Positions 2,158 to 61,863 of a stretch of DNA of 64,000 nt are shown here, piece after piece. This DNA is from Candidatus Humimicrobiia bacterium (GTDB taxonomy: Bacteria; Actinomycetota; Humimicrobiia; JAHJRV01). The stretch is from the NCBI GenBank assembly GCA_049647085.1, contig JBARXA010000007.1:47060-111059 (forward strand). Direction: 5' to 3'. The translations under genes were made by a program, and so were the position numbers. The stretch's first letter is position 1; each line of letters opens with the position of its first letter. The notes beneath the pieces were generated by a model that was given only the letters and a program-made list of their open reading frames with translations, had not been told where the DNA came from and ran no database searches.

Positions 2158-2326
2158 AATTTAAGAATAGAATTAGAAACGCATTATTATAATAGCAAAT
2201 GATATATTGATAATCATTTTTAAACAAAGATTATTTTTACTAATATTTTTCCATATTTTTTTCAATACCCTATTAGTTATAGAGTAATAATTGTTTAGGA
2301 CATTTAAAATAGAAGAGGAGAAATTT

Positions 2327-6499: not shown

Positions 6500-7034
6500 A
6501 ATAAAAAATAAACAGATTAAAAATAAACAACAACAAGTTTATGTATTTCCAATAAATAAAAGATAAGAAGAAGCCTTCAAAAAACTTTTAGATCTTAAAA
6601 TAGATAAGAATGTAGCCGGATCATTAATAAAGAAATATGGTTATAAAAAAGTAAATGCTTATACAAAATATCTAAATTGGAAATTATATAAATGATTTAC
6701 ACCAAAAAATGATTTACACCAAAAGATTTAAAACAATCATTTTTAGTTGATTCAATTGTTGATTCTTATATACTTCCTAAAAATTTTAAGGAAGGTACAT
6801 AGTTAAAAATTAAAAATATGAATAGTGCAAAAAAGTGTTATGAATCAACAAAAGGGGATTATATAATATCAGAAACAATATATCTATATCCATATTGTCC
6901 TTATTGTGAAAAAATTTAAAAAAATATTGATCAATGAAAAATATAAATTTTTAATGTCAGTAGAAAATAAAAATAAATTATAAGTAATATTGTTACTACT
7001 ACGTCAAGATGTTAAATTTTACTACGTGAAAATT

Positions 7035-8242: not shown

Positions 8243-8375
8243 TAGTAATCACATCTTTTATAAAGGTTTAAATTAAATCCTTACACGTGATTACCTTCTA
8301 ATAAAAATTTAACATTTAGTTTTATTAATTATTCTTAACATTTTGTTATTGTAACAATAAATATTACTGTTAAGA

Positions 8376-8404
8376 TTGACAATATTTCTTTTTTATAGTA
8401 AAAT
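8376..8404 (+). promoter_or_regulatory. Candidate sigma70-type promoter for the GRE locus (TTGACA-17 nt-TAAAAT)
   Basis: TTGACA at 8376-8381, an exact 17-nt spacer, and TAAAAT at 8399-8404. It sits about 145 nt upstream of the first locus gene. A perfect 7-1-7 palindrome TTATTGT-A-ACAATAA lies at 8346-8360. In AT-rich DNA such matches also arise by chance. Confidence 0.35.
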
Positions 8405-8549
8405 TAAAAATAATTGCAATCACTGCTCAAATGTGCAAATAATACACAAAGAAAGTTTCATAATTTATAAAATTTAAATTAAGTATAATAATCTAAAAGA
8501 TCCATTTACAGCGCATTTTTCATTGTTGCTTTCAAAAAAGGAGATTGTA

Positions 8550-9602
8550 TTGTCTTTATTATTTTATGAGGAAATTTTGGATCAACCTAAAGCATTAAAA
8601 ATATTAATAGAATATGTTGAAAATTCTAGTGAAGAGTTTAACAAGAAAATAAAAGAATCTTATAGTGTGAGAAAATTCAGTAAGGTTATTTTTACTGGAA
8701 TGGGTAGTTCTCTATTTGCTTCCATACCTGCCTCAATTTATTTAATAAATAGAGGAGTAAGTTCATATTATATCGATGCTTCAGAGTTATTACATTATAC
8801 TTTCAAGATTCTGGATGAAAAAACATTATTGATTGTTGTTTCTCAATCTGGAGGGACAGTAGAAATAATAAATTTATTAAAAAAGTTAAAGGGAAAGAAT
8901 TTAGAAACATGGTTATTTACTAATAATAAAAATTGTGAGATTGCAAATGATGTAAGTATGTTATTTGACATTCATGCCGGAGAGGAAAGAACTACATCAA
9001 CAAAGACTTATACTAATACAGTCTTGATGTTATATTTTGGTGCTCGTTCCATTTTAGACGATTTGGATGAAAACGTTTTTAAAGAAGGTTATAAGATTAG
9101 TGAATTAATTAGTGATTCGTTAAGTGATTTTAAAAAGAGGTCTTATGATATAGCAAAAGAATTAAATAATAGCCAATATATAAGTTTAATCGGTAGAGGT
9201 CCTTCCTTAAGCACAGCATACCAAGGGGCATTGGTAATTAAAGAAACAATAAAAAAATTTGCTGAGGGAATGAGTGGTGGTCAGTTTAGACATGGCCCTC
9301 TAGAGATTACGGGGAAGGGTCATTTTGCTATAATTTTTGCTCCATCAGGAAAGACATATCGTATTAACAGAAATTTAGCTATGGATATGACAAGAAACGG
9401 TTCAAGCGTTTTATGCATAACAGATGTAAATGATGAATCCAGTAAAAAATTGAGTATATTTAAACTACCTAAAATACCAGAAGATTTAGTTCCGTTGATG
9501 GAGATTATACCTATTGAACTTATTATATTGAATTTTGCAGAAATTAAAGGGATAAATATTGGTGATTTTTCCAAGATATACAAAGTAACCACCACTGAAT
9601 AA
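8550..9602 (+). CDS. Double-SIS-domain sugar-phosphate isomerase/deglycase-like protein (GlmS-isomerase/AgaS/FrlB family)
   Basis: EILDQPKAL N-terminus. The first SIS domain shows GMGSS...VSQSGGT; the second shows GRGPS...A.QGAL.IKE. The likely TTG start is at 8550, 7 nt after AAAAGGAG; the ORF track starts at 8523. Confidence 0.8.
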   Translation: MSLLFYEEILDQPKALKILIEYVENSSEEFNKKIKESYSVRKFSKVIFTGMGSSLFASIPASIYLINRGVSSYYIDASELLHYTFKILDEKTLLIVVSQSGGTVEIINLLKKLKGKNLETWLFTNNKNCEIANDVSMLFDIHAGEERTTSTKTYTNTVLMLYFGARSILDDLDENVFKEGYKISELISDSLSDFKKRSYDIAKELNNSQYISLIGRGPSLSTAYQGALVIKETIKKFAEGMSGGQFRHGPLEITGKGHFAIIFAPSGKTYRINRNLAMDMTRNGSSVLCITDVNDESSKKLSIFKLPKIPEDLVPLMEIIPIELIILNFAEIKGINIGDFSKIYKVTTTE

Positions 9603-9605
9603 GAT

Positions 9606-10694
9606 ATGGTCAATTATAAGGAAATAAAAAGAAAATTATTAAAAAAAATAGAAATGTTATCCCGATCAGAACTTTCGAAATTTAAGGTTTTAACAATGTC
9701 TGATTTTATATTAGACCATATTCTTTTTATAGATGATTTTGATTATTTTTTGAGAGAAGTTAAACGAATCTATAAACAAGGTGGTGGTGATCTTCCAGCT
9801 ATAAGGCAAACAATACAAAGAGGTGGCTGTAGTGCAAATACTGCAAGTGGACTCAGTGCTTTAGGAATAGACACATATTTTATTGGACGTACTAACCTTT
9901 TTGGGAAAAAACTTTTAGAATTTTTTCTCGGTGAGAAAAATGTGAATATAAAAAATTTGAAAACTGATGGGAATTTGAGTCTTATGACAATTTTTGAGAT
10001 TGGAAAAGAAAAAATTAATGTAATGGTTGGAGACCCGGATTCATTATCGCCTTTGGGATATAAAGATATTACTTCATCAGACAGGAAACTATTACATTCC
10101 TGTAATTTAGTCGGAATTTCTGGTTGGGCAATGAATAGGTCTGGAACTGATTTGGCTAAAGGCGTTTTTAATTTTGCAAAAAAAGTGAATACTTTGACTT
10201 ATCTTGACACTGCTGATCCTAGTTTTAGATTGGAGGAGATAAAAGATTTATATGAATATGTTATATCGAATAAAAATTTAGATATATTAAGCATCAATGA
10301 AAATGAACTTAATTATTATTCTAGTTTTATCTCTACCAAAGATAGTAATCTAAATATTTTGGAAAAAGGTGTTCTGTTAAAGAAAAATATTTCAGCTAAG
10401 ATAGATATTCATACTTCATTATACTCAGCTTCATTAGATGGTGATGAAGTATATATCATGCCCGCTTTTAAAGTGAATATTAAAAGAACTACAGGAGCTG
10501 GGGATATGTTTAACTCTGGAAATATTTTAGGATATCTTCTAAAATTAGAGCCCCTCGAACGGTTGCAGTTCGCTAATGCAATGGCTGGCTGTTTTATTTC
10601 TTCAAATATTCCATTACCTCCTAATATAAAAGATATCTATAATTTTATAAATAATACGCCATTTAAACCATTAAAAGGTGAAATAGTTGGGTAG
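9606..10694 (+). CDS. PfkB-family carbohydrate/nucleoside kinase
   Basis: 362 aa. Carries the GG...N.A..LSALG motif and the C-terminal TGAGDMFNSG anion-hole motif of the ribokinase/PfkB family. It starts 3 nt after the SIS stop. Confidence 0.8.
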   Translation: MVNYKEIKRKLLKKIEMLSRSELSKFKVLTMSDFILDHILFIDDFDYFLREVKRIYKQGGGDLPAIRQTIQRGGCSANTASGLSALGIDTYFIGRTNLFGKKLLEFFLGEKNVNIKNLKTDGNLSLMTIFEIGKEKINVMVGDPDSLSPLGYKDITSSDRKLLHSCNLVGISGWAMNRSGTDLAKGVFNFAKKVNTLTYLDTADPSFRLEEIKDLYEYVISNKNLDILSINENELNYYSSFISTKDSNLNILEKGVLLKKNISAKIDIHTSLYSASLDGDEVYIMPAFKVNIKRTTGAGDMFNSGNILGYLLKLEPLERLQFANAMAGCFISSNIPLPPNIKDIYNFINNTPFKPLKGEIVG

Positions 10695-13062
10695 TAAAAA
10701 AAATAGAAAACCTATTACGAAAAGAATAGAAAAATTAAGAAATAAAATTATTAATACGGTGCGTAAGTTAGATATTGAGAGAGCAAGATTATTTACTGAA
10801 TCCTATAAAAAGAATGAGAATAAACCTTTAATATTGCGGCGTGCGATGAGCTTATCCTATGTTTTAGAAAATATGACTATAGCTATAGATCCAAATGAAC
10901 TCGTAGTTGGAGATAAGGCAATTGAACCAAGGAATGGTGATGTTTCTCCTGAGATGGCGGTAGATTGGATTAATGAGGAATTAGAAAATTTACCTATTCG
11001 ACCTCAAGATCAATTTAAAGTATCAAGTAGAGATATTTCAGAATTACGCGAAGAAATTTTTCCTTATTGGGAAGGAAAAACATTAAAAGAGGCTATTAAT
11101 AATGCTATGAAAGGTGAAATTAGAAGGGCAATTCAAGAAGGTGTATTTATATTAAATCAAACAGATCATGGGCAAGGACATATATTACCTAATATGGAGA
11201 AGTGGTTAAAGAAAGGAATCTGTGGTTTAAAAAAAGACGTTGAAGAACATATAAATAAATTTAAGAGTTGTGCTAGTAAAAATTATAGGAAGTTTAATTT
11301 TTACAAGTCAGCTCTTATAACACTTGAAGCATCAGAGGTTTTTATAAAACGATATGCAGATTTATCTAAAGAAATGGCTTCTAATTTTGATGGTATGGAA
11401 AAAGAAAATTTATATAAAATATCTGAAATTTGCACTAATTTGATTAATAGACCTCCTATTACTTTCAGAGAAGCTATCCAGGCTTTGTGGTTTCTAATAG
11501 TAATAATTCAAATAGAATCTAATGTTACTTCAATTTCTCCCGGAAGATTGGATCAATACCTTTTCTCATATTATCTTAAAGATATTAATTCCGGAAATAT
11601 TTCAAAGATTCATGCACAAGAAATATTAGAGAATCTTTGGATTAATTTCAACAAAATTGTATTTCTTCGTAGTTCAGAGAGTGCACAATATTATGCTGGA
11701 TTTCCTATGGGCTTTAATATCGCCATAGGAGGTCAAAATATAGATGGAAAAGATGCTACAAATGAATTATCTTATATGTGCTTAAAGGCACAGGAGGACA
11801 TTGGATTCCCTCAACCTAATTTATCAGTAAGATTACATAGTACTACACCAACGGATTTTTTACTAGAAGTTTGTAAAGCAATAAGTTATGGTGATGGACA
11901 ACCACAACTGTTCAATGATGAGGTTATAATTCCTGCACTATTAAATTGTGGTTATTCATATGAGGATGCGAGAAATTATGCTATTGTTGGATGTGTTGAG
12001 ATTTCTGTTCCTGGAAATACAATGGGTCTCACAAATGCTGCTATGGTAAACATGGTCAAAATATTAGAGTTAACTATGAATAATGGAGTATCAAGAACTA
12101 CCCAACATCAGGTTGGTACAAAAACTGGGACTTTGAGTACCTTTGAAGACTTTGAAGAAGCTTTTGAAAAGCAATTAAAACATTTTATTAGTTTAATGGT
12201 TAGAGGATCTAGAATTGTAGAAAAGATGCACGCTAGTATGGTACCTACTCCTTTTCTTTCAACAGTTATTGATAATTGCTTGGAGAAAAGAAAAGATGTA
12301 ACTGATGGTGGCGCAAAATATAATTTTTCAGGAGTTCAAGGTGTTCAAATAGCGAATATAGCTGATTCTCTTATTGTAATTAAAAAAGTTATTTATGAGG
12401 ACAATTTATTAGACCTAAAAAGTTTTAATGTTATTTTAGATAAAAATTATGAAGATGCTGAAGAAATTCGCCAGATGCTAATATATAAACTTCCAAAATA
12501 TGGCAATGATATTGAAGAGGTTGACAATTTAGCTAATAAGTGGGCAAAAAAATATTGTAAGTTGATTGAAGAACATAAAAATTATCGTGGTGGTCAATTT
12601 CATCCTGGATTTTATACAGTTTCTGCATACATTCCTATGGGTTTTGTTGTAGGAGCAACCCCAGATGGACGGAAAGCTTTTAGTCCTCTAGCTGATGGAG
12701 GTCTATCACCAATGAGGGGTTTGGATGTAAAAGGTCCAACAGCAATATTGAAATCTGTATCAAAAATTGATTTATTGTTGGCTTCTAATGGTTCACTTTT
12801 AAATCTTAAGTTCCTCCCCTCCTTCTTTGAAACTGATGGAGCTTTTAAACATTTTTCAGCATTTCTTAGGACGTTTGTTGATCTTAAAGTCCAACATGTT
12901 CAGTTTAATGTTATTTCATCTAAAATTTTAAGGGAAGCACAAAAAGAACCTCAAAATTATAGAAATTTATTAGTAAGAGTTGCGGGTTATAGTGCTTTTT
13001 TTGTAGAACTCTCTAAAGAAATGCAGGAAGAAATAATTATGAGAACAGAGCATACTGGTTAA
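10687..13062 (+). CDS. Glycyl radical enzyme, PFL-like fold, single-Cys eliminase class; substrate unknown
   Basis: 791 aa. N-terminal ERARLFTESYK. Cys loop VGCVE at nt 11989-12000 (GCVE, not the CC of pyruvate formate-lyase). Glycyl radical loop RVAGYSAFF with Gly767 at nt 12985-12987. The TTG start overlaps the kinase stop by 8 nt and is preceded by AAAGGTG. Confidence 0.92.
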   Translation: MGSKKNRKPITKRIEKLRNKIINTVRKLDIERARLFTESYKKNENKPLILRRAMSLSYVLENMTIAIDPNELVVGDKAIEPRNGDVSPEMAVDWINEELENLPIRPQDQFKVSSRDISELREEIFPYWEGKTLKEAINNAMKGEIRRAIQEGVFILNQTDHGQGHILPNMEKWLKKGICGLKKDVEEHINKFKSCASKNYRKFNFYKSALITLEASEVFIKRYADLSKEMASNFDGMEKENLYKISEICTNLINRPPITFREAIQALWFLIVIIQIESNVTSISPGRLDQYLFSYYLKDINSGNISKIHAQEILENLWINFNKIVFLRSSESAQYYAGFPMGFNIAIGGQNIDGKDATNELSYMCLKAQEDIGFPQPNLSVRLHSTTPTDFLLEVCKAISYGDGQPQLFNDEVIIPALLNCGYSYEDARNYAIVGCVEISVPGNTMGLTNAAMVNMVKILELTMNNGVSRTTQHQVGTKTGTLSTFEDFEEAFEKQLKHFISLMVRGSRIVEKMHASMVPTPFLSTVIDNCLEKRKDVTDGGAKYNFSGVQGVQIANIADSLIVIKKVIYEDNLLDLKSFNVILDKNYEDAEEIRQMLIYKLPKYGNDIEEVDNLANKWAKKYCKLIEEHKNYRGGQFHPGFYTVSAYIPMGFVVGATPDGRKAFSPLADGGLSPMRGLDVKGPTAILKSVSKIDLLLASNGSLLNLKFLPSFFETDGAFKHFSAFLRTFVDLKVQHVQFNVISSKILREAQKEPQNYRNLLVRVAGYSAFFVELSKEMQEEIIMRTEHTG

Positions 13063-13301
13063 TTAGTGGATTACTTTAACAGTGAAAAATTGTAATTGTA
13101 TTAATAAAATTTAGTAAAAGGGGGTAAGCGGGGAAATGATGAATTAACTAATTTCTTTAAAAAAGGAGGTGGGATATGAAAAAAATTAGATTTGTTTTAA
13201 GAAAGGTATTGAGTTGAACTCTTTTAAAACCTATTACTTAAAACAAATCTTCATAAAATTTTACTAAACTTTTAATTAAAATCAGAAAAAGAGAGGTTGA
13301 A

Positions 13302-14414
13302 ATGAATTTTCTTAAAAAAGTAATTCTAACGATTGTGACTCTTTCAATTGTTGTATCACTATCACTTGCATTTACTGGTTGCCCTCCTGCAGCACCTACA
13401 GAGGAAGCCACTGAGGTAGAAGAAACTACTGAAAAAGAGGAAGAAGAAGCAGAGACTGAGGAAGAGGAGCCTATAAAGGTAGCATTATTGTTTTCAGGAT
13501 TTTTAGGTGATCAGTCATTTAATGACTCGGCTTATGCGGGTATACAGAGAGCAGTGGATGATTTTGGAATAGAAGTAAAAGTATTTGAATCAAAAGAGCC
13601 TGCTGTTTGGGAACAAAATGTGGTTTCTGCTGCAGACGCTAATTATGATTTGGTACTTTGTGTTTCTACCAATTTCCAAGAATTTATAAAAGATCATGCT
13701 CCAGAATTTCCTGATGTAAAATTTGCTTTAATTGATGGAATTGTGGAAGACGAGCCGAACGTATCTTCAGCGGTTTTTGCTAATAATGAAGGGTGTTTCT
13801 TATCGGGACTAGTTGCAGCAATGTGGACAACAAAGACAGAAATTTCAGGGGTTAATGAAGATAAGATTATAGGATTTGTGAGTGGAATGGATATTCCAGT
13901 TGTGCATGATTTCTTGAAAGGATATGAACAGGGTGCAAGATTAATAGAACCTGATATAGAAGTTTTGGTTTCATGGGCAGGATCTTGGACCGATCCTGTT
14001 AAAGGAAAAGAATTAACCTTAGCACAATATAATCAGGGAGCAGATGTTGTTATGAATGTTGCTTCTGGTACAGGACCTGGAATTCTTGAAGCTGCATCTG
14101 AAGCTGGTAAGTATGCAATAGGTGTTGATTTAAATCAGGATGGATTATTTCCCGGAAGTATAATTACTTCTTTACTTAAAAGAGTAGATAATGCTTGTTA
14201 TGTTACAGTTAAGTCAGTAATAGATGGTACTTTTAAAGGTGGAACTGTAGTAGATATGAATTTAACTAATGGTGGTGTAAGCCTTACTGACTTTTCAGTA
14301 ATGAAAGAAAATATGGGTGATGCTTTTCCTGAAGATGTAATTACCACTGTAGAGGAATATATACAGAAAGTTATAAATGGTGAAATAATAGTAGAGGGTG
14401 AGCCAGGCTTTTAA
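13302..14414 (+). CDS. BMP-family (PnrA/Med-like) ABC transporter substrate-binding lipoprotein
   Basis: Signal peptide with lipobox LAFTGC, then a Glu/Thr-rich linker. The body has the BMP-family pattern (FLGDQSFNDSAY.G...A.....GVD.NQ). Confidence 0.85.
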   Translation: MNFLKKVILTIVTLSIVVSLSLAFTGCPPAAPTEEATEVEETTEKEEEEAETEEEEPIKVALLFSGFLGDQSFNDSAYAGIQRAVDDFGIEVKVFESKEPAVWEQNVVSAADANYDLVLCVSTNFQEFIKDHAPEFPDVKFALIDGIVEDEPNVSSAVFANNEGCFLSGLVAAMWTTKTEISGVNEDKIIGFVSGMDIPVVHDFLKGYEQGARLIEPDIEVLVSWAGSWTDPVKGKELTLAQYNQGADVVMNVASGTGPGILEAASEAGKYAIGVDLNQDGLFPGSIITSLLKRVDNACYVTVKSVIDGTFKGGTVVDMNLTNGGVSLTDFSVMKENMGDAFPEDVITTVEEYIQKVINGEIIVEGEPGF

Positions 14415-14461
14415 TGTAAAAACTTAAGATCCTCCTGATTAATTTGTGCTACTTAGTGAAA

Positions 14462-14497
14462 GTAATGGTTTCTGGTTATCCTATCAGAAACCATTAC
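14462..14497 (+). terminator. Perfect 13-bp stem-loop downstream of the binding-protein gene (intra-operon attenuator or mRNA stabiliser candidate)
   Basis: GTAATGGTTTCTG (14462-14474), a 10-nt loop, then CAGAAACCATTAC (14485-14497). No clear U-tract follows. Confidence 0.5.
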
Positions 14498-14540
14498 CTA
14501 TAAAAAATCTTAGTAATGTATTTTTAAGGAACAAAAACGC

Positions 14541-16067
14541 TTGGATTTTAAATTGATTAATAAAATAATTGAAATGATTAATATAAATAAAAGCTTTCCC
14601 AATGTTAAAGCTGTTGATAATGCTGGAATCGATCTTTATCAAGGGGAAATTCATTCACTCGTGGGAGAAAATGGAGCTGGAAAAACCACGCTTATGAATA
14701 TTTTATATGGATTATATCAACCTGATTCGGGGAAAATTAAGATTAGAGGAAAAGATATGGAATCATTAACCCCCAGGGTTGCTATTGAGCTTGGTATTGG
14801 AATGATACATCAGGAATTTATGTTGGTAAGGGAACTTACAGTTTTAGAAAATATTATATTAGGATTTGAACTAGGTAAATTTGGTAGAATTGATTTTTCA
14901 AAAACTAAGGAAAAAATTAATTACTATCTTGATAATTATAATTTGGAAATTCCACTAAATAAAAAGGTTAGGGATATTTCCGTAGGTGAGGCACAAAGGG
15001 TTGAGATTATAAAGACTTTATATCGTAGTACTGAAATTTTGATATTAGACGAACCAACTGCAGTTTTAACCCCTCAAGAGACAAAAAAATTATTCGAAAT
15101 TTTAAATTTTTTAAAGAAAGATAATAAGTCTATTATTTTCATCTCACATAAATTAAGGGAAGTCATGGAGATAAGTGAAAGAATTACCATAATGCGTAAT
15201 GGTAAGCATGTAAATACAGTAAATAAAGAAGACGTCTCCATAAAAGAATTAGCTAAAATGATGGTTGGCAGAGAAGTTTTTTTAAATATAAAAAGAGAAC
15301 CTTGTAAAAAGAGTAAAAAAATTTTATCTGTCAGGGATATTTATGTTACTGGTGAGAAGGAGCTTTCAAAATTAAAAGGGGTATCTTTTGATGTACATCG
15401 TGGCGAAGTTGTTGGAGTAGCTGGGGTAGATGGAAATGGTCAGAGTGAGCTTGTAGAAGCACTCACAGGTCTTCGTAAAATTGAAAAAGGGGATGTTACA
15501 TTTAAGGGTAAATCAATTAAAAATTTAAGCCCAATAGAAATTAGGAAAGCAGGTATTTCACACATTCCAGAAGATAGGAATCTAAGAGGTTTAAACAGAA
15601 GTTTTACTTTATATGAAAATCTAATAGCTAATCATTTTAATAAAAAACCTTACTCAAGATTAATACAGTTAAATAAAAAGAAAATTACAAAATATGGTAA
15701 TAGATTAATTAAGGAATTTGATATTAGACCAGCTATTGGGAATACAGTTGCTGTAAATTTGTCTGGTGGTAATGCACAAAAGACTGTGGTTGCAAGAGAA
15801 GTGGATATGAATGCAGATTTATTAATTGCTTCTCAACCTACTAGAGGTGTTGATGTAGGTTCTACAGAAGCAATTAGAAATACTATAAATTATATTAAGA
15901 AAAAAGGTGTAGCTGTTTTATTAGTTTCTGCTGATTTAGAAGAAATATTATCTTTATCTGATGTAATACTAGTTATGTATGAAGGCAAAATAAGTGGGAT
16001 TATACCGGCAGAAAAGGCTAGAGAAGATAATATTGGGATCTTAATGACTGGAGGTAAAGTTAAGTGA
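14541..16067 (+). CDS. ABC transporter ATP-binding protein with duplicated ABC domains (sugar/nucleoside importer type)
   Basis: Two Walker A motifs (GENGAGKTT, GVDGNGQSE), LSVGEAQRVEI and LSGGNAQK signatures, and Walker B ILDEPT. The start is ambiguous: TTG 14541 or ATG 14574. Confidence 0.9.
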   Translation: MDFKLINKIIEMININKSFPNVKAVDNAGIDLYQGEIHSLVGENGAGKTTLMNILYGLYQPDSGKIKIRGKDMESLTPRVAIELGIGMIHQEFMLVRELTVLENIILGFELGKFGRIDFSKTKEKINYYLDNYNLEIPLNKKVRDISVGEAQRVEIIKTLYRSTEILILDEPTAVLTPQETKKLFEILNFLKKDNKSIIFISHKLREVMEISERITIMRNGKHVNTVNKEDVSIKELAKMMVGREVFLNIKREPCKKSKKILSVRDIYVTGEKELSKLKGVSFDVHRGEVVGVAGVDGNGQSELVEALTGLRKIEKGDVTFKGKSIKNLSPIEIRKAGISHIPEDRNLRGLNRSFTLYENLIANHFNKKPYSRLIQLNKKKITKYGNRLIKEFDIRPAIGNTVAVNLSGGNAQKTVVAREVDMNADLLIASQPTRGVDVGSTEAIRNTINYIKKKGVAVLLVSADLEEILSLSDVILVMYEGKISGIIPAEKAREDNIGILMTGGKVK

Positions 16068-17089
16068 GAAGAAGTAGTTATTTAAATTTACTTATAACAA
16101 TAATAATTTCACTAATTGCTGGTGGAATTATTATGATTTTATTAGGCCATAATCCCTTTAAAGTCTATGCTGAACTTTTTAAAGGAGCTTTTATTGGGAA
16201 ATTCAATATAGGTAACACTCTTGGACGTTTTGTTCCTATTTTATTAACAGCAATTGCTTTTGCTATATCATTTAAAGTATCAGTATTTAATGCTGGCGTT
16301 GAAGGGGAATTATATTTAGGTGCAATTGCAGCAGCATGGGCAGGATTTGCAATTCAAGGGTTGCCAAAGGTTCTTCATATATTAGTTTGTATGATAGTTG
16401 CAACTATTGTTGGGGCTTTATGGGCTGCGGTTCCTGGGGTTTTAAAAGCTTATTATAGAGTAAATGAAATATGTACCACTCTATTATTAAATTATGTTGC
16501 AATTTTTTTCACATCATATCTGGTTAATAATCAGTTATCTTCACATACTGGAATACCACAAACACCTAAAGTTCTTCCATCAGCAACACTTACTATGATT
16601 CTCAAACCTAGTAAAGCAAATATTGGCATATTTATTACTTTAGCAGTTTTGTTATTCGTTTACTGGTTAATACATTATACAACCCTAGGATATAAAATAA
16701 GAAGTGTAGGTAGTAACCCATTCTTTTCAGATTATGTTGGAATTGGAACTAAAAAAATAATAGTAATTGGGATGCTTATTAGTGGTGGGATTGGTGGTCT
16801 CGCTGGCGGTATAGAATCATTAGGAACATATAATCGTTTTTTAGATGGATTTTCACAATTTATAGCTTTTGATGGTATGTTAGCCTCACTAATTGCTAGA
16901 AATAACATAAAAATGATTTTTATAATTGCATTATTTCTAGCTAGTTTGAAAAACGGTGCTTTAGGTATGGAGAGATTTACTAGTGTTCCAAAATCTATAG
17001 TCGATGCAATTATAGCCATATTTATATTATTAACTTCGCTTGAAGGGTTAATAAATATAAGAAGGAAAGTCAAAACTATAGAAGCCTGA
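16064..17089 (+). CDS. ABC transporter permease (BMP-system, NupB/YufP-like)
   Basis: 341-aa polytopic membrane protein. It overlaps the ATPase stop by 4 nt. Typical branched-chain/ribose-type permease pattern. Confidence 0.85.
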   Translation: MRRSSYLNLLITIIISLIAGGIIMILLGHNPFKVYAELFKGAFIGKFNIGNTLGRFVPILLTAIAFAISFKVSVFNAGVEGELYLGAIAAAWAGFAIQGLPKVLHILVCMIVATIVGALWAAVPGVLKAYYRVNEICTTLLLNYVAIFFTSYLVNNQLSSHTGIPQTPKVLPSATLTMILKPSKANIGIFITLAVLLFVYWLIHYTTLGYKIRSVGSNPFFSDYVGIGTKKIIVIGMLISGGIGGLAGGIESLGTYNRFLDGFSQFIAFDGMLASLIARNNIKMIFIIALFLASLKNGALGMERFTSVPKSIVDAIIAIFILLTSLEGLINIRRKVKTIEA

Positions 17090-17119
17090 GTTAAAAAATA
17101 ATTTAAATAAGGGTTAGCT

Positions 17120-18052
17120 ATGTTAGAGAAAATAGCGTTGATTTTTAATTATTCTATTATCAAAACAACTATTAGATATTCTACACCAATATTATATGCA
17201 GCTTTGGGTGTTCTTATCACTCAGCAAGCTAATATGTTAAATGTTGGTGTAGAAGGTATGATGCTTAGTGGTGCTTTTACAGCTATTGCAGTAAGTTATT
17301 TTACCGGTAATTGGTTTCTAGCTTTAATTGCAGCTATTATTGTTGGAATAATTCTGGCAATAATTATGGCATTTGCTCATTTGAAATATGATGCTGACAT
17401 CATTGTTGTTGGTGTAGCTATTAATCTACTTTCATTAGCATTGACCAGATTTTTATTAAACAATGTTTTAGGAGCTAGTGGTTTTTTTCGTTCTCCATAT
17501 ATAGTACCTATACCCAAAGTTCATTTTGATTTTTTAACTAAGAATGATGTGATTAATACTCTTTTTAATAATTATTCAATGTTTGAAATAATTGGAATTA
17601 TGCTAGTTTTTATAATTTGGTTCTTGTTATTTAAAACTGTTTGGGGTTTGAGGGTAAGGAGTGTAGGATTGTTCCCGCAAGCAGCAGAAACCGCAGGTAT
17701 AAATGTATATAAATTGAAATTTAGTACAATGATATTTTCAGGTCTTCTTGGTGGAATGGCTGGTGCTCATTTATCATTAGGTTATTCAAAGCTTTTTGTT
17801 GAAAATATGACAGGTGGCAAAGGATTAATGGGTGTTGCTGCAATGTTTTTCGGGGGAGGAGATCCCATTTTTACTTGGGTTGGTTGTTTAATATTTGGAT
17901 TTACTGATTCCGTTGGTTCTAGGTTGCAACCTTATGGATTACCAAGTCAATTTGTTCTTATGTTTCCGTATATTACAACTGTATTATTTTTAACATTGTC
18001 TATGATAAGGAGAATAAGAAGGGAAAGAATAGAAAAAAGTTCTTTAAAATAA
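17120..18052 (+). CDS. ABC transporter permease (BMP-system, NupC/YufQ-like)
   Basis: 310-aa polytopic membrane protein and a paralogue of the preceding permease (VGVEGMML, GLRVRSVG motifs). Confidence 0.85.
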   Translation: MLEKIALIFNYSIIKTTIRYSTPILYAALGVLITQQANMLNVGVEGMMLSGAFTAIAVSYFTGNWFLALIAAIIVGIILAIIMAFAHLKYDADIIVVGVAINLLSLALTRFLLNNVLGASGFFRSPYIVPIPKVHFDFLTKNDVINTLFNNYSMFEIIGIMLVFIIWFLLFKTVWGLRVRSVGLFPQAAETAGINVYKLKFSTMIFSGLLGGMAGAHLSLGYSKLFVENMTGGKGLMGVAAMFFGGGDPIFTWVGCLIFGFTDSVGSRLQPYGLPSQFVLMFPYITTVLFLTLSMIRRIRRERIEKSSLK

Positions 18053-18121
18053 AAAATATTCTTCAGTATTATAACAATATTTTGAAATATATTTATTTTT
18101 ACAAACCTATTAGGAGGCATA

Positions 18122-19183
18122 ATGGGTGTAATAACTGTTAATGGTGAGATAAAAAGCAAGGATCTAGGTATAACATTAGTTCATGAGCATTTATTTCTGG
18201 ACTTCCGTTTAATATTTGAGGATTCGAGTGAAGTATCAAAAAAAGAATTATCAGAACAAAAGATTAACATAGAAAATTTACATATCCTAAAAAAAAGTCC
18301 CTATAGTATTAAAGATAACTTGATTTTGTCCAGTGAAGACCTAATTCTAAAAGAACTATTAGAATTTAAAAAAGCAGGAGGAAAGACGATAGTCGAACAG
18401 ACTTCAATTGGTCTTGGGAGATCACCCCAATCTATTCGTAATGTTGCTAATTTAGCTGCTCTAAATGCAGTGATGGGATGTGGTTATTATGTAAAAGATA
18501 GTCTTCCTGAGTACATTATTAAAAAATCTGAAAAGGATCTAATCTCTGAATTGATTAGTGAGATTCATTACGGTGTTAATGGGACAAATATTAGACCGGG
18601 TATTATTGGAGAATTAGGTATAAGTAATGATATAGGTGATTGGGAAAAGAAATTATTAAAAGTTGCCTCAAAGGTTCAAAGAGAGACAGGTCTTGCAATT
18701 TCAGTACATATACAGGCAGTACCAACATTACCTGGTTTCACAGGTAAATTGCCTGGATTAAAAATATTGAATATATTAGATGAATATGGGGCAATTTTAG
18801 AAAAGGTTGTTATTTGTCATACAGATGCGAAGATAGATTTGAAATATATTAAAAGCATAATGGATTTTGGTGCATATGCAGAGTTTGATCATGTAGGTAA
18901 AGAATTTTATATAGAATCAAGTGATTTTTTGATGGATAGAGATATTGATAGAATACTCGCATTAAAGGAATTAGTTGATTCTAATTATAGTAAAAACATA
19001 TTAATTTCTAATGATGTGTGTCTAAAGACTGATCTGATTTCATATGGTGGCTTCGGGTACGGACACATACTAAACAATTTAGTTCCTTTGATGTTGAAAA
19101 AAGGAATAGATAGGGAAGTAATTAATACAATATTAGTAAGTAACCCAAGAAGGTTGTTAGATGTTGGAAGTAGTTATATGTAA
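18122..19183 (+). CDS. Phosphotriesterase-homology protein (amidohydrolase superfamily; lactonase-like)
   Basis: N-terminal GITLVHEHL (HxH metal ligands). Later His/Asp positions (SVHIQ, CHTD, ISNDV) are consistent with the PTE/PHP TIM-barrel family. Confidence 0.8.
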   Translation: MGVITVNGEIKSKDLGITLVHEHLFLDFRLIFEDSSEVSKKELSEQKINIENLHILKKSPYSIKDNLILSSEDLILKELLEFKKAGGKTIVEQTSIGLGRSPQSIRNVANLAALNAVMGCGYYVKDSLPEYIIKKSEKDLISELISEIHYGVNGTNIRPGIIGELGISNDIGDWEKKLLKVASKVQRETGLAISVHIQAVPTLPGFTGKLPGLKILNILDEYGAILEKVVICHTDAKIDLKYIKSIMDFGAYAEFDHVGKEFYIESSDFLMDRDIDRILALKELVDSNYSKNILISNDVCLKTDLISYGGFGYGHILNNLVPLMLKKGIDREVINTILVSNPRRLLDVGSSYM

Positions 19184-19260
19184 TTTTAAATACTTTTAAA
19201 AAATAAATTCTAACTTTCATTGGTTTAATAATTAATAATTTAATTTTAAAGGAGGCTAAA

Positions 19261-20040
19261 ATGGGAAATCTCAATGGAAAAGTTGCAGTCATAACTGGTG
19301 CTGGGCAAGGAATTGGAAGAGCAATTGCATTAAGACTAGCTGAAGACGGTGCTGACATAGCAGTATGTGATATTAGTGAAAAAACTGGTAAGAAAGTTGC
19401 TGATGAGGTATTAAAAAAAGGGCGGCAAAGTTTATTTGTAAAAGTTGATGTGACTAACAGTAAAATGGTTAAGGATATGGTAAAAAAAATCATTGATAGG
19501 TTTGGAAAAATTAATATTTTTGTTGCAAATGCTGCAATTTCACAAGTAAAAAAATTTCTTGATATAACTGAAGATGATTGGAATAAGATGATAACAACAA
19601 ATTTAACTAGTGTTTTTCTTACAGACAAAGCTGTAATACCATATATGCAAAAGCAAGGTGGTGGAAAAATCATTAATGCAGCAAGTATAGTAGGAAAACA
19701 GGGAGCAGCTTTGTTTTCACATTATAGCGCAGCAAAATTTGGAGTAATAGGTCTTACTCAAGCTTTAGCCAAAGAGCTTGCAGAAGATAATATTACTGTA
19801 AATGCATATTGCCCAGGGATAGTTGATACGCCTATGTGGAAGGTTGGTGAGGAAGGTGTTTCAAAAATATGGGGGATTAAGTCAGAAGATGTAACGAAAA
19901 AATATATAGAAAATACACTTCTTAAAAGAATTACAAAACCCGAAGAGATTGCCGGCTTGGTCTCATTTTTAGCTTCAGAGGATGCTAATTTTATGACAGG
20001 TCAATCTGTGGTATTAGATGGTGGTATTTGTATTATTTAA
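19261..20040 (+). CDS. Short-chain dehydrogenase/reductase, acetoin reductase / sorbitol-6-P dehydrogenase-like
   Basis: TGAGQGIGRAIA cofactor motif, NAA, the catalytic YSAAK, and CPGIVDTPMW as in BudC/SrlD-type SDRs. Confidence 0.9.
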   Translation: MGNLNGKVAVITGAGQGIGRAIALRLAEDGADIAVCDISEKTGKKVADEVLKKGRQSLFVKVDVTNSKMVKDMVKKIIDRFGKINIFVANAAISQVKKFLDITEDDWNKMITTNLTSVFLTDKAVIPYMQKQGGGKIINAASIVGKQGAALFSHYSAAKFGVIGLTQALAKELAEDNITVNAYCPGIVDTPMWKVGEEGVSKIWGIKSEDVTKKYIENTLLKRITKPEEIAGLVSFLASEDANFMTGQSVVLDGGICII

Positions 20041-20133
20041 TTATTTCTTTGAAATGTTTTATAAATTTATTTTTTAGATGGTATTAAAATCTCAAAAAGC
20101 TATCTATCTTAAATTTTAGTGAGGTGAGTAGGA

Positions 20134-21303
20134 GTGAAAAGAATTAAAGCAGGTTTTGTAGGTGCTGGATTTGTTGGTCCTATACATATTGAAAATTTAA
20201 GGAGACTTGGTATTGCAGATGTAGTTGCACTAGCTGAAATAGACCAAAAAAAGGCTGATGAATTAGCTGATAGATTAAGTATAAAAAAAGCTTATGGGAA
20301 ATGGGAGGACTTAATATCAGATGATGAAGTTGAGGTTGTGCACGTTACATGCTCAAATGATTTACATTACCCAGTATCTAAAGCATGTATCGAAGCAGGA
20401 AAGAATGTTATTTGTGAAAAGCCTTTAAGTATGAGTATAGAAGAAGCCAAGGAGCTTGTATCATTGGCTAAGAAAAAAAATGTTGTTAATGCTACTACTT
20501 TTAATATGGAATTCTACCCTATGGTAAAAGAAGCAATTGCTATGATATCGAGAGGAGATTTAGGCAGAATTTATTTGGTATTTGGTAGATTGTATCAAGA
20601 TTGGTTATCGAAGGATTCGGATTATAACTGGAGAGTTGAATCTAAATATCAAGGAAAGACTAGAGTTGTAGCTGATTTAGGTTCACATTGGTTTCATATA
20701 ATTCAAAAAATATTAAATAAAAGAATTATATCAGTCTTTGGTGATAGAACAATTTTCATCCCAGTAAGAAAAAGACCTACAATTGAAATCCCAACCTTTT
20801 TAGAACAGGAATTAAAACCAGGTGAATATGAGGAAATAGAGGTTGATACCGAGGATCATGCAACTGTGTTGCTTAGATTTGAGGATAATATAAAAGGTAT
20901 ATTTGTTGGATCTCAAGTTAGTCCAGGTAGAAAGAATAGATTAGAGTGGGAAGTTAGTGGTAGTTTGAAAAGCTTGGCTTGGCAACAGGAAGATCCTAAT
21001 CAACTTTGGATAGGCTATAGAAATAAAGCCAATGAATTATTATTAAGAGATCCGAGTCTATTAAGTGAAAATGTAAGGCAGTTTGCTTATTATCCAGGAG
21101 GACTTGCTGAAGGTTATGATGATTCTTGGAAAAATTTATTGAATAAGATTTATAAATATATATTGGAGGAAGGAAATTTAAAAGGAAAAGTACCAGATTT
21201 TCCAACTTTTAAGGACGGATATGAAAATATGGTTATTATAGAATCTATATGGCAAAGTATGAAAAAAAATGAGTGGATTGATATTAATTGGGAGTTGTAT
21301 TGA
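20134..21303 (+). CDS. Gfo/Idh/MocA-family NAD(P)-dependent oxidoreductase
   Basis: N-terminal Rossmann motif GFVGAGFVG, the diagnostic CEKP motif, and a typical C-terminal alpha/beta domain. GTG start after GAGGTGAGTAGGA. Confidence 0.85.
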   Translation: MKRIKAGFVGAGFVGPIHIENLRRLGIADVVALAEIDQKKADELADRLSIKKAYGKWEDLISDDEVEVVHVTCSNDLHYPVSKACIEAGKNVICEKPLSMSIEEAKELVSLAKKKNVVNATTFNMEFYPMVKEAIAMISRGDLGRIYLVFGRLYQDWLSKDSDYNWRVESKYQGKTRVVADLGSHWFHIIQKILNKRIISVFGDRTIFIPVRKRPTIEIPTFLEQELKPGEYEEIEVDTEDHATVLLRFEDNIKGIFVGSQVSPGRKNRLEWEVSGSLKSLAWQQEDPNQLWIGYRNKANELLLRDPSLLSENVRQFAYYPGGLAEGYDDSWKNLLNKIYKYILEEGNLKGKVPDFPTFKDGYENMVIIESIWQSMKKNEWIDINWELY

Positions 21304-21375
21304 TTTTTTAGATAAAAACTACTCCTAGAAAAACAATAAAATTTTTATAAAAGATTAATAATTATTGGCACAAGA

Positions 21376-22302
21376 GTGAACAACAATTTTTCTATTGGTG
21401 ATAATAAGGGTCTAATTTTCAACATACAGAGATTCAGTATTCATGATGGTCCTGGGATAAGAACAGTAATATTTTTAAAGGGATGTCCTTTAGTTTGTGG
21501 ATGGTGTTGTAATCCTGAGGGTCAGGATACAGAAATGGAAATAATGTTCCTAAGTGAGAGGTGTATAAATTGTAACACTTGTTACACTGTTTGTGATAAT
21601 GATGCAATCATAAAAAAGCCTAATAAGTATAGAGTCAAAAAAAAATTTTGTAATCTTTGTTGCGAGTGTATAAGAGCGTGTCCTTCCGGAGCTTTAAAAC
21701 TTGTAGGAAGATATTATTCTATAAATGAAGTTATAAAGGAGATTTTAAAGGATGAAATTGTTTATTACAGATCAAATGGAGGGATAACTCTTTCTGGTGG
21801 TGAGCCTCTTTACCAGTGGAAATTTTCATTAAATGTATTTAAGGCTTGTAAAGATTTAGGTATAAATACTGCCTTAGAAACATGCGGTTATGGACCTTGG
21901 GAGAATTTTAAAAAAATTTTAGAGCATGTAGACTGGTTATTTTACGACATTAAACATATTGATTCAGATATTCATAAATATTTAACAAGTGTAGATAATA
22001 AAATAATATTGAAAAATGCGAAAAGAGCTTCTGACTTGAATATAAATATGATTTTGCGTTTTCCAATAATATCAGGTATTCATGACAATGAACAGTACGT
22101 ATTAAAGATTATGAAGCTATCAAAGGAGTTGGGTATTAAAGAAATACATCTACTACCTTATCATAAATGGGGGGTTTCAAAATATAAAAATTTAGGTAGA
22201 CAATACAAATTTGTAGATTTGGAGAAGGTAAAGAATTCTACTTTAGAAAAATTAAATTTGATCCTGGAGTTGGATGGTTTTAAAGTTTCGATTGTAGAAT
22301 AA
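21376..22302 (+). CDS. Glycyl-radical enzyme activating enzyme (radical SAM) with two auxiliary ferredoxin-type cluster motifs
   Basis: Radical SAM motif CPLVCGWC (Cx3Cx2C) within GCPLVCGWCCNPE. Also CINCNTCYTVC and CNLCCECIRACP, plus the GGEPL SAM motif. This architecture is typical of activases for eliminase-class GREs. Confidence 0.9.
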   Translation: MNNNFSIGDNKGLIFNIQRFSIHDGPGIRTVIFLKGCPLVCGWCCNPEGQDTEMEIMFLSERCINCNTCYTVCDNDAIIKKPNKYRVKKKFCNLCCECIRACPSGALKLVGRYYSINEVIKEILKDEIVYYRSNGGITLSGGEPLYQWKFSLNVFKACKDLGINTALETCGYGPWENFKKILEHVDWLFYDIKHIDSDIHKYLTSVDNKIILKNAKRASDLNINMILRFPIISGIHDNEQYVLKIMKLSKELGIKEIHLLPYHKWGVSKYKNLGRQYKFVDLEKVKNSTLEKLNLILELDGFKVSIVE

Positions 22303-22637
22303 TTCTTTTTTAAGTATTTTTATTGAAAAGTTGGAATTATGGTTAGAGAGATTAACTTATTCCTCTAAACATTGAAGCTATTCTTAACTCTGTAAAAAAA
22401 GGAAAAGCAATTATAATATACAAGCCCATTCTCAGTGTTAGTTTCACTGATGAGATAGCAAGCCAGATTCAGCAGTTAGTCTTTGATTAACTAGATATGC
22501 CAATTTATAGAATAAATTCACCTAATGGAATTCATCCTAGTTCAGAGGCTTTAGAAAAGATATTTTTACCCAATTCAGAGGAAATAATAGAAGCTATAAA
22601 TTCATATATGTAACCAAGGGAGGTCTTAAAACAGAAT

Positions 22638-23600
22638 ATGGTTATTAAAGAATTATTATATAAAATTTTAAAATTATACTATCATGAACATCTGAAACAG
22701 AAAGAGATTGCTGAGAAGTTAAGTATTTCAAGATTTAAAGTTTCAAGATATTTAAATAAAGCATTAAATGAAGGTATAGTTAAGATATTGATTAATTATC
22801 CTGAAAATGTAGTAAGTTTTTCAGATTTGGAAAACAAAATAGAAAAGAAGATAGGTTTAAAAGAATGCATAGTTGTTCAAACTGCAGATGATATTGAAGA
22901 AATCTATAAGAAGATGGCAGTAAGATTGGTTGATCTATTAGAGAGATATGTAAGAATTGGTGATTATATTGGAATTAGTTGGGGTAGTACTCTTAAAGGG
23001 GTAGTAGATCATATTGATATTATTAAGAATATGAATATAAAAGTTGTGCCAATGGTTGGTGGGGTGGGTAAAATTGGAAAAAATAGTCAAACTACAAATA
23101 TAGTTGCGAAAATTTTAGCTGATAAATTTGGGGGCATAAATTTTATGATTCATGCGCCTGCAGTTTTAAACAGTGTGGAATTGAAAAAGGTGTTTTTAAA
23201 GGAACCCCATATTAACAAGATTTTTAAGATTATTAATAGAATACGGATAGCATTGGTAGGAATAAGTGATATTGGGTCAGAATCTAATTTACTTAAAACT
23301 GGGGTTTTTATTAAGGAACAATTCGATTATTTAAGAAAAAAAGGTGTAGTTGGTGATGTAAATTTAATTTTTATTGATAGAAAAGGCGAGCAAGTAGTTA
23401 CTGATTTAGACGATAGACTTATCAATTTTAATAAAGATGATTTAAAAAAGATTGAGAATGTTGTAGGAATTGCTTTTGGAGAAAGGAAAGCTGAGGCAAT
23501 TATATCTGCTTCTATTGGTAAAATTATAAATATTTTAATAACTGATAACATAACTGCTAAAAGAATTTTGAAATTACTTAATAGAAAAGATATTTATTGA
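22638..23600 (+). CDS. SorC/DeoR(Bsu)/CggR-family sugar-phosphate-binding transcriptional regulator
   Basis: N-terminal HTH (YYHEHLKQKEIAEKLSISRFKVSRYLNKA) and a C-terminal sugar-binding domain (GISWGSTL, VPMVGG, GISDIG, GDV). Confidence 0.85.
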   Translation: MVIKELLYKILKLYYHEHLKQKEIAEKLSISRFKVSRYLNKALNEGIVKILINYPENVVSFSDLENKIEKKIGLKECIVVQTADDIEEIYKKMAVRLVDLLERYVRIGDYIGISWGSTLKGVVDHIDIIKNMNIKVVPMVGGVGKIGKNSQTTNIVAKILADKFGGINFMIHAPAVLNSVELKKVFLKEPHINKIFKIINRIRIALVGISDIGSESNLLKTGVFIKEQFDYLRKKGVVGDVNLIFIDRKGEQVVTDLDDRLINFNKDDLKKIENVVGIAFGERKAEAIISASIGKIINILITDNITAKRILKLLNRKDIY

Positions 23601-50350: not shown

Positions 50351-51679
<1,329 letters not shown>

Positions 51680-61854: not shown

Positions 61855-61863
61855 GTTTAGCTT

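Follow-up and report, generated by a model that had tools for sequence, protein, structure and literature searches.

The described systems nearest to the one considered here are those of PflD and YbiW, two glycyl radical enzymes (GREs) of Escherichia coli. Both are ring-opening C–O lyases, or 'GRE isomerases', characterised by Ma et al. (JACS 146:26187, 2024) and covered in two reviews, PMC13450708 of 2026 (section 5.7) and PMC12441222 of 2025 (section 5.1). According to those sections, PflD acts on 1,5-anhydromannitol-6-phosphate and YbiW on 1,5-anhydroglucitol-6-phosphate, the product being 1-deoxyfructose-6-phosphate. This is split by FsaA or FsaB into glyceraldehyde-3-phosphate and hydroxyacetone, and the substrates are supplied by a phosphotransferase system (PTS) (PMC13450708, PMC12441222). 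On the E. coli chromosome, ptsA-fsaB-gldA lies beside frwCB-pflDC-frwD, and ybiWY lies beside fsaA. Substrate complexes are available as PDB 8ID0 (PflD, 1,5-anhydromannitol-6-phosphate) and 8ID7 (YbiW, 1,5-anhydroglucitol-6-phosphate). Searches of the literature for anhydrofructose gene clusters, or for more recent GREs that act on sugars, led back to the 2024 work only. Here, we describe a locus of 12 co-directional genes, built around a GRE and its activating enzyme, that fills positions 8523–23600 of a 64,000-nucleotide stretch of contig JBARXA010000007.1 (Candidatus Humimicrobiia bacterium). This whole stretch is referred to as the window.

Sequence comparison gives about even odds that this is radical 'anhydroglycolysis' in an import-and-kinase variant, acting on a cyclic-ether sugar phosphate that is related to, but probably not identical with, the substrate of PflD. 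An earlier reading of the DNA sequence (the original prediction) had proposed radical chemistry on a phosphorylated sugar derivative, and this is still the most likely function. It had also called the GRE an orphan, for which no such reaction had been described. That claim is out of date, since the reactions of PflD and YbiW have been published, and PflD is the closest solved relative of the window GRE (PDB 8yjo, 773 bits; 47% identity to E. coli PflD). The locus is a divergent variant of a described type of pathway in a new arrangement, rather than an unprecedented reaction class. The refuting case set out with the original prediction does not apply: the GRE lies beside the PflD clade rather than in it, differs from other members of the group at near-invariant residues, and has a conserved neighbourhood. 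The locus is therefore still a candidate, inside this known class of reactions, for a substrate or downstream route not described before. That it hides both is a tentative suggestion, with the balance of probability against it.

The GRE carries the glycyl radical motif RVAGYS at residues 764–769, where Gly767 is the radical glycine. Its cysteine loop, GCVE at residues 435–438, contains Cys436 and Glu438, which align with the corresponding Cys and Glu of PflD and glycerol dehydratase. Both motifs are as originally predicted, including the single cysteine that marks the dehydratase/C–X lyase class rather than the CC type. The activase has the cysteines C37x3C41x2C44 and two auxiliary 4Fe-4S motifs (C63xxC66xxC69 and C92xxC95..C98), which are the two extra ferredoxin motifs noted before. 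Together, these motifs show the predicted protein to be a complete CXE-class (eliminase/isomerase) GRE of the PFL-like division, with its activase encoded in the same locus.

Against the NCBIfam model TIGR01774, the GRE scores 910 bits. In the PDB ranking, 8yjo is followed by PflD 8id0 (705 bits), the B12-independent glycerol dehydratase (696 bits), other eliminases, and YbiW (485 bits). Pairwise identity to 8ID0 is 45%. The relationship is settled, as far as sequences allow, by loop motifs and not by identity alone. Four such motifs (NQ[TK]D[HK][AG]QGH, GFPxG, YTVSA[HY], and LADGG[LM]SP) are common to the window GRE, its close relatives, a large and mainly Chloroflexota environmental family, a gut Firmicutes clade, and both PflDs, while glycerol dehydratase and YbiW differ at all four. 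The GFPxG motif puts a glycine at the position of glycerol dehydratase Tyr339, and LADGG[LM]SP contains a one-residue insertion. The window GRE itself has NQTDHGQGH, Gly342, and ADGGLSP in these loops. YbiW shares the CXE motif and the reaction class, its product being the same as that of PflD. However, it is only 34% identical to the window GRE and has other loop motifs. A neighbour-joining tree of 100 sequences, drawn without support values, places the window clade inside the PflD-containing group, with glycerol dehydratase as sister and YbiW outside. Within this tree, again without support values, the window GRE falls outside the clade formed by PflD, 8ID0, and the GRE of locus L025. We assign it to a distinct, rare subfamily inside the PflD-like isomerase/C–O lyase group.

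Like the E. coli PflD/PflC system, the locus combines a CXE-class GRE, an activase with ferredoxin domains, and a sugar-phosphate-forming step encoded next to the GRE. Unlike the E. coli PflD locus (frwCBD, fsaB, gldA), it has an ABC importer and a PfkB-family kinase instead of a PTS, and lacks both an Fsa aldolase and GldA. It adds a conserved SIS protein, a Gfo/Idh/MocA oxidoreductase, and a short-chain dehydrogenase/reductase (SDR). Homologues of FsaA, FsaB, and FrwC were sought throughout the window and none was found. The features of the locus and its borders are as follows:

8376–8404, plus strand: sigma-70-like promoter match, TTGACA-17-TAAAAT (11/12), the strongest in the region; intergenic, upstream of the SIS gene
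8523–9602, plus strand: double-SIS protein; likely true start TTG at 8550, behind AGGAG
9606–10694, plus strand: PfkB-family sugar kinase (Pfam PfkB, 61.6 bits)
10687–13062, plus strand: GRE, 791 aa (Pfam PFL-like, 734.6 bits; Gly_radical, 99.9 bits)
13302–14414, plus strand: BMP/PnrA-family lipoprotein, substrate-binding component of an ABC importer (Pfam Bmp, 223.6 bits)
14541–16067, plus strand: tandem-domain ABC ATPase of sugar/nucleoside-importer type (Pfam ABC_tran, two stretches)
16064–17089, plus strand: ABC permease 1, with multiple hydrophobic segments; its gene overlaps the ATPase gene by 4 nt
17120–18052, plus strand: ABC permease 2, with multiple hydrophobic segments
18122–19183, plus strand: PTE-family hydrolase of the amidohydrolase superfamily (Pfam PTE, 221.1 bits)
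19261–20040, plus strand: classical SDR (TIGR02415, 266 bits against a cut-off of 304)
20134–21303, plus strand: Gfo/Idh/MocA NAD(P) sugar oxidoreductase (Pfam)
21376–22302, plus strand: GRE-activating radical-SAM enzyme (TIGR02494, 340 bits, cut-off 174)
22638–23600, plus strand: SorC/DeoR-type regulator with a sugar-phosphate-binding domain (Pfam Sugar-bind, 200.3 bits)
23742–25823, plus strand: fused E1 alpha/beta thiamine-diphosphate enzyme (Pfam E1_dh, Transket_pyr, and Transketolase_C)

Of the 12 locus genes, the 10 that were searched pass Pfam gathering scores, and the two permeases are assigned from their hydrophobic segments. The order from the SIS gene to the SorC regulator is that of the original prediction. 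Its count of thirteen co-directional genes is true only if the E1 fusion, just outside the range it gave, is included. The kinase stop and the GRE start (a TTG codon) overlap by 8 nt and only 3 nt separate the SIS and kinase genes, in agreement with the claim that translation of the GRE is coupled to that of a sugar kinase and an SIS enzyme that binds phosphosugars. However, short gaps are not found throughout, as 239 nt lie between the GRE and BMP genes and 335 nt between the activase and SorC genes. Promoter and terminator scans gave counts not above shuffled background, and the site at 8376–8404 is therefore only a plausible operon start. The locus is treated as a unit because its core is conserved in relatives, and not because of promoter or terminator signals. 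Its surroundings are, as claimed, unlike those of microcompartment, diol, hydroxyproline, or sulfonate GREs. Among the scanned open reading frames of at least 100 aa in the 64-kb window (several of 100–170 aa were left unscanned), there are no genes for bacterial microcompartment (BMC) shells, aldehyde dehydrogenase, P5C reductase, or sulfite handling.

Close relatives of the GRE are few. A search of 5.8 billion proteins returned six closer groups (two at 75% identity, one at 68%, two at about 65%, and one at 57%), followed by a large family at about 50%. These six are 90%-identity protein clusters beyond the window's own, and they lie on contigs from five other organisms, where the SIS–kinase–GRE core is found again. 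No GRE more than 53% identical occurs among 185,579 GTDB species representatives. Two sets of relatives (L001/L002 and L173) have the order SIS-PfkB-GRE-SDR-Gfo, with SDR and Gfo proteins 78–80% identical to those of the window. The others vary this theme: SIS-PfkB-CUT1 ABC-GRE-activase in L090, ROK-Gfo-PfkB-GRE in L003, and GRE-activase-SIS-CUT1 ABC-SDR-ROK, with a Gfo gene upstream, in L004/L005. The conserved core consists of the SIS protein, a kinase, and the GRE, together with the activase in some loci, often with Gfo and SDR genes, and a sugar ABC importer of one kind or another is present in every case. Only the window has the BMP transporter, the PTE hydrolase, and the SorC regulator; related loci carry SBP_bac_1 (CUT1) transporters in place of the BMP type. 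Since the BMP-ABC-PTE block sits exactly where the SDR gene follows the GRE gene in L001 and L173, it looks like an exchanged transporter cassette.

A second, tandem GRE, each with its own activase, is present in L001 (2616–5006) and L013 (6040–8487). The second GRE of L001 scores about equally with glycerol dehydratase and YbiW and lower with PflD. That of L013 branches outside the PflD-containing group in the neighbour-joining tree. These tandem arrangements suggest two radical steps, or two substrates, per cluster.

The wider PflD-like group shows how general such contexts are. Across 84 loci, genes for a sugar kinase (ROK or PfkB) or for a PTS of the Frw type occur within 8 kb in 44. An Fsa aldolase occurs in 14 of the 84, four of which also have a PTS, and ribose-type ABC components and Gfo/Idh/MocA genes occur in 18 and 12, respectively. 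Fsa genes (14 loci) and sugar kinase genes (37 loci) are never found together within 8 kb. This shows that a kinase-dependent, PTS-independent, and Fsa-free layout is common outside gut bacteria. By analogy, the gene context supports a sugar-phosphate substrate for the group as a whole. The uncharacterised GREs of gut Firmicutes and Chloroflexota are 46–53% identical to the window GRE and have the same motif set. In gut Firmicutes they are flanked by genes for FrwCB-type PTS components and Fsa (Anaerostipes hadrus L046, Eubacterium segne L053), and in Chloroflexota by ROK or PfkB kinase genes (for example, L013). Unlike the window GRE, they keep A280, S281, K320, M405, S449, D450, and H648, and they have no SIS partner. 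Their sugar-phosphate surroundings nevertheless support, again by analogy, a common reaction class. Another conserved companion of the GRE, present in 20 loci including L022, L028, and L030, is a protein of about 594 aa that contains an actin-like ATPase (ROK-like) motif.

The conserved SIS partner matches Pfam SIS with 97.6 bits and resembles the isomerase domain of GlmS (about 70 bits). It scores far below the equivalog cut-offs for GlmS (about 139 bits against 418), NagB-II (55 against 430), and FrlB (25.9 against 430). Aligned to E. coli GlmS (PDB 1moq), it keeps SQSGGT, STK, the Glu of IKE, the His of FRHGP, and the Lys of a C-terminal YKVT. We take the GlmS counterparts of these to be S347–T352, E488, H504, and K603. 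Since both the phosphosugar-binding and the catalytic residues are kept, the protein is probably active, whether as a ketose/aldose-6-phosphate isomerase, a deaminase, or a deglycase. Homologues stand directly upstream of PfkB-GRE in L001, L173, and L090 (68%, 68%, and 60% identity). More distant relatives (33–44% identity; L174–L176, L091, and L092) nearly always adjoin a ROK or PfkB kinase gene, with no GRE in view. One of these pairs lies beside a GH38 mannosidase gene, and another occurs with genes for Fsa, Gfo/Idh/MocA, and AP_endonuc_2 enzymes. By analogy, the latter may represent a non-radical counterpart pathway.

The kinase belongs to no named PfkB subfamily and matches no NCBIfam equivalog. 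Its score for prokaryotic ketohexokinase (Khk) is 30.6 bits against a cut-off of 35, and its PDB matches are weak. The partial PfkB protein of L013 does exceed the Khk gathering cut-off. Relatives 56–72% identical to the window kinase adjoin the GRE gene in L001, L003, L090, and L173.

Of the two oxidoreductases, the SDR resembles acetoin reductase/2,3-butanediol dehydrogenase, and its relatives (78–80% identity) are encoded directly 3' of the GRE in L001 and L173. The Gfo/Idh/MocA protein is 80% identical to its counterparts in L001 and L173, and 72% identical to that in L003. Its best NCBIfam match is levoglucosan dehydrogenase, far below cut-off (146 bits against 650), and its structural matches are levoglucosan dehydrogenase 6a3f (120 bits), scyllo-inositol/L-glucose dehydrogenase (108 bits), the C-glycoside 3-oxidoreductase DgpA (63 bits), and 1,5-anhydrofructose reductase (62 bits). 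The last of these is a Gfo/Idh/MocA family member according to the part of PMC12441222 cited here. Three of the Gfo relatives (levoglucosan dehydrogenase, DgpA, and 1,5-anhydrofructose reductase) are thus dehydrogenases that act on ring-locked sugars, which fits, at the level of protein similarity, the proposed variant of anhydroglycolysis.

The remaining genes are less constant partners. The structures nearest to the BMP lipoprotein are Lbp 7x0r, 4pev, and TmpC/PnrA, while the ABC ATPase resembles xylose-, ribose-, and B6-type ATPases, each below cut-off. The PTE hydrolase is closest to 3k2g (Rsp3690, 216 bits) and 9efa (PTER, 187 bits). A role for it as a phospho-sugar lactonase was considered and rejected: it scores 60 bits against 630 for the phospho-furanose lactonase model, its nearest relatives are Rsp3690 and PTER, and it is missing from related loci. 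The SorC regulator scores 195 bits against 420 for the Bacillus DeoR model and 150 against 486 for LsrR.

The E1 fusion is of the AcoA/AcoB or pyruvate dehydrogenase (PDH) E1 type (NCBIfam PDH E1 beta, 407 bits), with no E2 or E3 gene adjoining. A homologue 56% identical occurs in L013 (9667–11124), after the second activase, where the contig end cuts the gene, and L173 has a fragment of an E1 gene behind its Gfo gene. An L013 reading frame between GRE and activase was also considered as an E1 fusion and was rejected, as Pfam shows it to be the second GRE. Likewise, the E1 fusion was rejected as a general GRE partner. Eleven relatives in reference genomes (43–59% identity) belong to the ordinary AcoA/AcoB type and have no GRE gene in their vicinity. 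Since only the window, L013, and the L173 fragment connect E1 proteins with GREs, we treat the link as hypothetical. The E1 fusion is possibly part of the pathway, and, together with the acetoin-type SDR, its predicted class fits a CH3-CO-CHOH- product.

From the enzyme classes, their relatedness, and their linkage, we infer the substrate and every step of the following route. The ABC system would import a small neutral sugar derivative, most likely a 1,5-anhydro-alditol, 1,5-anhydrofructose, or a close cyclic-ether analogue. In an optional step, the Gfo and SDR enzymes could interconvert keto and alcohol or epimeric forms, such as 1,5-anhydroglucitol, 1,5-anhydrofructose, and 1,5-anhydromannitol. 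Alternatively, the SDR might play the part of E. coli GldA and reduce a product that is a methyl ketone. The PfkB kinase would make the phosphate ester with ATP, standing in for the E. coli PTS. In the activated GRE, the Cys436 thiyl radical would take a hydrogen from the carbinol carbon next to the ether carbon and Glu438 would deprotonate the hydroxyl. The C–O bond would then break via a spin-centre shift, Cys436 would give the hydrogen back, and the product would be an open-chain deoxy-ketose phosphate. The SIS enzyme may handle a ketose-6-phosphate intermediate, in place of the Fsa encoded in E. coli and gut Firmicutes loci, or may instead convert a 2-keto anhydro-sugar phosphate. The acetoin-type SDR and the E1 enzyme would perhaps contribute to later conversion.

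Several observations weigh against this route. The GRE scores 894 bits against the PflD equivalog NF007437 (NCBIfam), below the cut-off of 1109, where E. coli PflD reaches 1725, the borderline PflD-clade member of L025 reaches 1108.5, and the close relatives P0002 and P0007 reach 861 and 864. Its identity to glycerol dehydratase (44%) is only slightly below that to PflD (47%), and the tree that separates the two carries no support values. No Fsa aldolase was found in the window, and the binding protein of the importer is of the nucleoside (BMP) type. Moreover, the window clade has changes at eight sites where at least 85 of the 86 other members of the group agree: A280V, S281T, K320N, M405Q, L446M, S449T, D450N, and H648Y. 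At positions 280, 281, 320, 405, 446, 449, 450, and 648, the PflD clade has A, S, K, I/M, Y, H, D, and H, respectively. Asn450 aligns with Asp447 of glycerol dehydratase, and position 281 adjoins the Ser282 equivalent. We take both to be substrate-binding sites in the glycerol dehydratase structure, which makes them a lead rather than a test. With eight near-invariant residues changed, the substrate is probably not identical to the 1,5-anhydromannitol-6-phosphate of PflD.

The SIS enzyme raises a further difficulty. A 1-deoxy-ketose is incapable of C1–C2 aldose–ketose isomerisation, the reaction of GlmS-type SIS enzymes. Consequently, the simple model leaves the conserved SIS partner unexplained. 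There are three possibilities, which are inseparable in silico: the GRE product may not be 1-deoxyfructose-6-phosphate; the SIS enzyme may act on a 2,3-enediol; or it may convert a keto-anhydro sugar phosphate, for example 1,5-anhydrofructose-6-phosphate, to hexose-6-phosphate, the oxygen analogue of the deglycase reaction. A bolder proposal, which we regard as possible although the chances are against it, is that the window clade performs an undescribed radical ring-opening or elimination on a sugar phosphate, for instance another anhydro-, a keto-anhydro-, or an imino-alditol phosphate. The product would be processed by the GlmS-type SIS enzyme and possibly by an acetoin-type thiamine-diphosphate enzyme (1-deoxy-ketose phosphate to an acetyl unit and tetrose phosphate), rather than by Fsa.

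The most conservative account of these data would make the GRE a functional PflD orthologue that converts 1,5-anhydromannitol-6-phosphate to 1-deoxyfructose-6-phosphate and differs in supply only. An ABC importer and a kinase would replace the PTS, the Gfo and SDR enzymes would funnel 1,5-anhydroglucitol and 1,5-anhydrofructose to the manno epimer, and the aldolase would be encoded elsewhere in the genome. PflD is indeed the best structural match, with loop motifs in common, and a Gfo/Idh/MocA enzyme reducing 1,5-anhydrofructose has the precedent noted above (PMC12441222). An absent aldolase is also not unusual, as none of the 37 kinase-type loci has an Fsa gene nearby. Strict orthology is unlikely, however, given a score below the equivalog cut-off and below that of the borderline L025 enzyme, and given the eight clade-specific changes. 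GRE active sites are usually narrowly tailored to their substrates, as section 4.3 of PMC13450708 puts it, and the scheme gives the conserved SIS enzyme no role. A greater departure would be a 1,2-eliminase, similar to glycerol or propanediol dehydratase, that attacks a linear polyol, or its phosphate, at the vicinal diol terminus, the kinase, SIS, and redox enzymes having supplied this substrate. The B12-independent glycerol dehydratase of C. butyricum (PDB 1R8W) and propanediol dehydratase share with the window GRE the Cys/Glu loop and the His164 and Tyr640 equivalents, and the former matches at 44% identity and 696 bits. The window GRE thus keeps the equivalents of the catalytic Cys, Glu, His165, and Tyr643, and the oxidoreductases of the locus could make or consume polyols. 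What makes this quite unlikely is that the dehydratase signatures (GNYYYNGVGH, the Tyr339 equivalent, and ADG-VSP) are all missing, with a one-residue insertion in ADG(G)xSP instead. In addition, the neighbour-joining tree groups the window GRE with PflD, the scanned window reading frames include no aldehyde dehydrogenase, alcohol dehydrogenase pair, or BMC genes, and the locus has no genes for aldehyde processing.

The SIS–PfkB pair invites a different comparison, with FrlB and FrlD (fructoselysine-6-phosphate deglycase and kinase), in which a PfkB gene likewise adjoins that of a double-SIS enzyme. If the pair were a kinase and deglycase for fructosamine-type compounds (Amadori, Heyns, or imino-sugar), the GRE might act as HplG does and break a C–N rather than a C–O bond, here in a glycated amine or imino-alditol that carries a phosphate. 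Together with the CUT1 ABC transporters of relatives, the arrangement resembles what we take to be the layout of frl and fra operons. The SIS enzyme keeps the SQSGxT motif and the Glu, His, and C-terminal Lys of GlmS-type enzymes, position 450 has changed from Asp to Asn, and GRE isomerases that cleave C–N bonds, such as HplG, do exist according to section 5.7 of PMC13450708. We nevertheless think such a lyase very improbable. The FrlB score is a small fraction of its cut-off, the locus contains no amino-acid- or amine-handling gene, and members of the wider SIS family (33–38% identity) have ROK kinases as partners where the gene context is that of ordinary sugars, as beside the GH38 mannosidase. 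We know of no GRE in FrlB/FrlD or GlmS systems. Finally, the 15-kb stretch might be a mosaic, in which the BMP-ABC-PTE block (13.3–19.2 kb), the SorC gene, and the E1 fusion are unrelated insertions by a SIS-PfkB-GRE-SDR-Gfo-activase module. The direct succession of GRE, SDR, and Gfo in L001 and L173 would agree with this, as would the absence of BMP, PTE, and SorC genes from every relative, the larger gaps at the block borders (239 and 335 nt), and the GRE-free, ordinary AcoAB-type relatives of the E1 fusion in reference genomes. However, all genes are co-directional with no convincing terminator between them, each related locus also has some sugar ABC importer, and an E1 homologue or fragment again follows the cluster in L013 and L173, so that a mosaic has only a slight probability. 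For the core genes, it is compatible with the import-and-kinase variant of anhydroglycolysis.

The rest of the window gives some indication of the organism. A gene for HypD and a HypE-like gene lie at 722–3337. Genes for carbon monoxide dehydrogenase (CODH; prismane family) and the acetyl-CoA synthase (ACS) beta subunit, followed by subunits of a complex-I-like hydrogenase (Ech/Mbh-type), occupy 54429–58542 and 59858–63172. The hydrogenase maturation genes, CODH/ACS, and the Ech-type hydrogenase mark the organism, with a G+C content of about 30%, as a strict anaerobe, probably acetogen-like or hydrogen-cycling. Its enolase (50351–51679) has a top identity of 63% among the GTDB species representatives.

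Upstream of the locus, about 1.8 kb of A-T-rich DNA (6500–8300) has only short minus-strand reading frames, one with a faint rve_3 integrase-core hint (E = 0.086), and may be a mobile-element remnant bordering the locus. Downstream, 1.3 kb (25824–27146) contains no intact reading frame above 78 aa and may reflect gene decay; one fragment there gives a weak ADH_N hint (E = 0.035). A decayed zinc-dependent alcohol dehydrogenase gene at 26.3–26.9 kb was suspected but not confirmed, since that hint was the only indication and the alcohol dehydrogenases of L001 and L090 gave no tblastn match. Beyond this, on the minus strand, lies an MnmA-type tRNA 2-thiouridylase gene (28117–29565, 482 aa), whose conserved domain starts at residue 130. 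The excess N-terminus is either a true extension or the result of a start codon called too far upstream. It is followed by a trio for a MoxR AAA+ ATPase, a DUF58 protein, and a transglutaminase-like (TgpA) protein (29587–34468, minus strand). A MoxR–DUF58 pair resembling this trio adjoins the ROK–SIS pair of the Chloroflexota locus L176.

Until 2024, no radical enzyme was described as opening the ring of anhydro-sugar phosphates, and the two now described are both from E. coli, with a PTS ahead of them and Fsa behind. The locus described here and its relatives indicate that this enzyme group is far broader, since kinases and ABC importers accompany many of its members in environmental anaerobes. 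In at least one sub-clade, near-invariant residues have been re-tailored and a different conserved partner has been acquired, an SIS enzyme that appears catalytically intact from its sequence. If the substrate is the same as that of PflD, the locus would be an ordinary substrate-supply variant. If it differs from 1,5-anhydromannitol-6-phosphate, the known scope of glycyl radical carbohydrate chemistry would widen, and unrecognised pools of anhydro- or deoxy-sugars in anoxic habitats would be indicated. Should the product indeed pass through the SIS enzyme rather than Fsa, radical sugar catabolism would have, in environmental anaerobes, a second downstream branch with a mechanism of its own.

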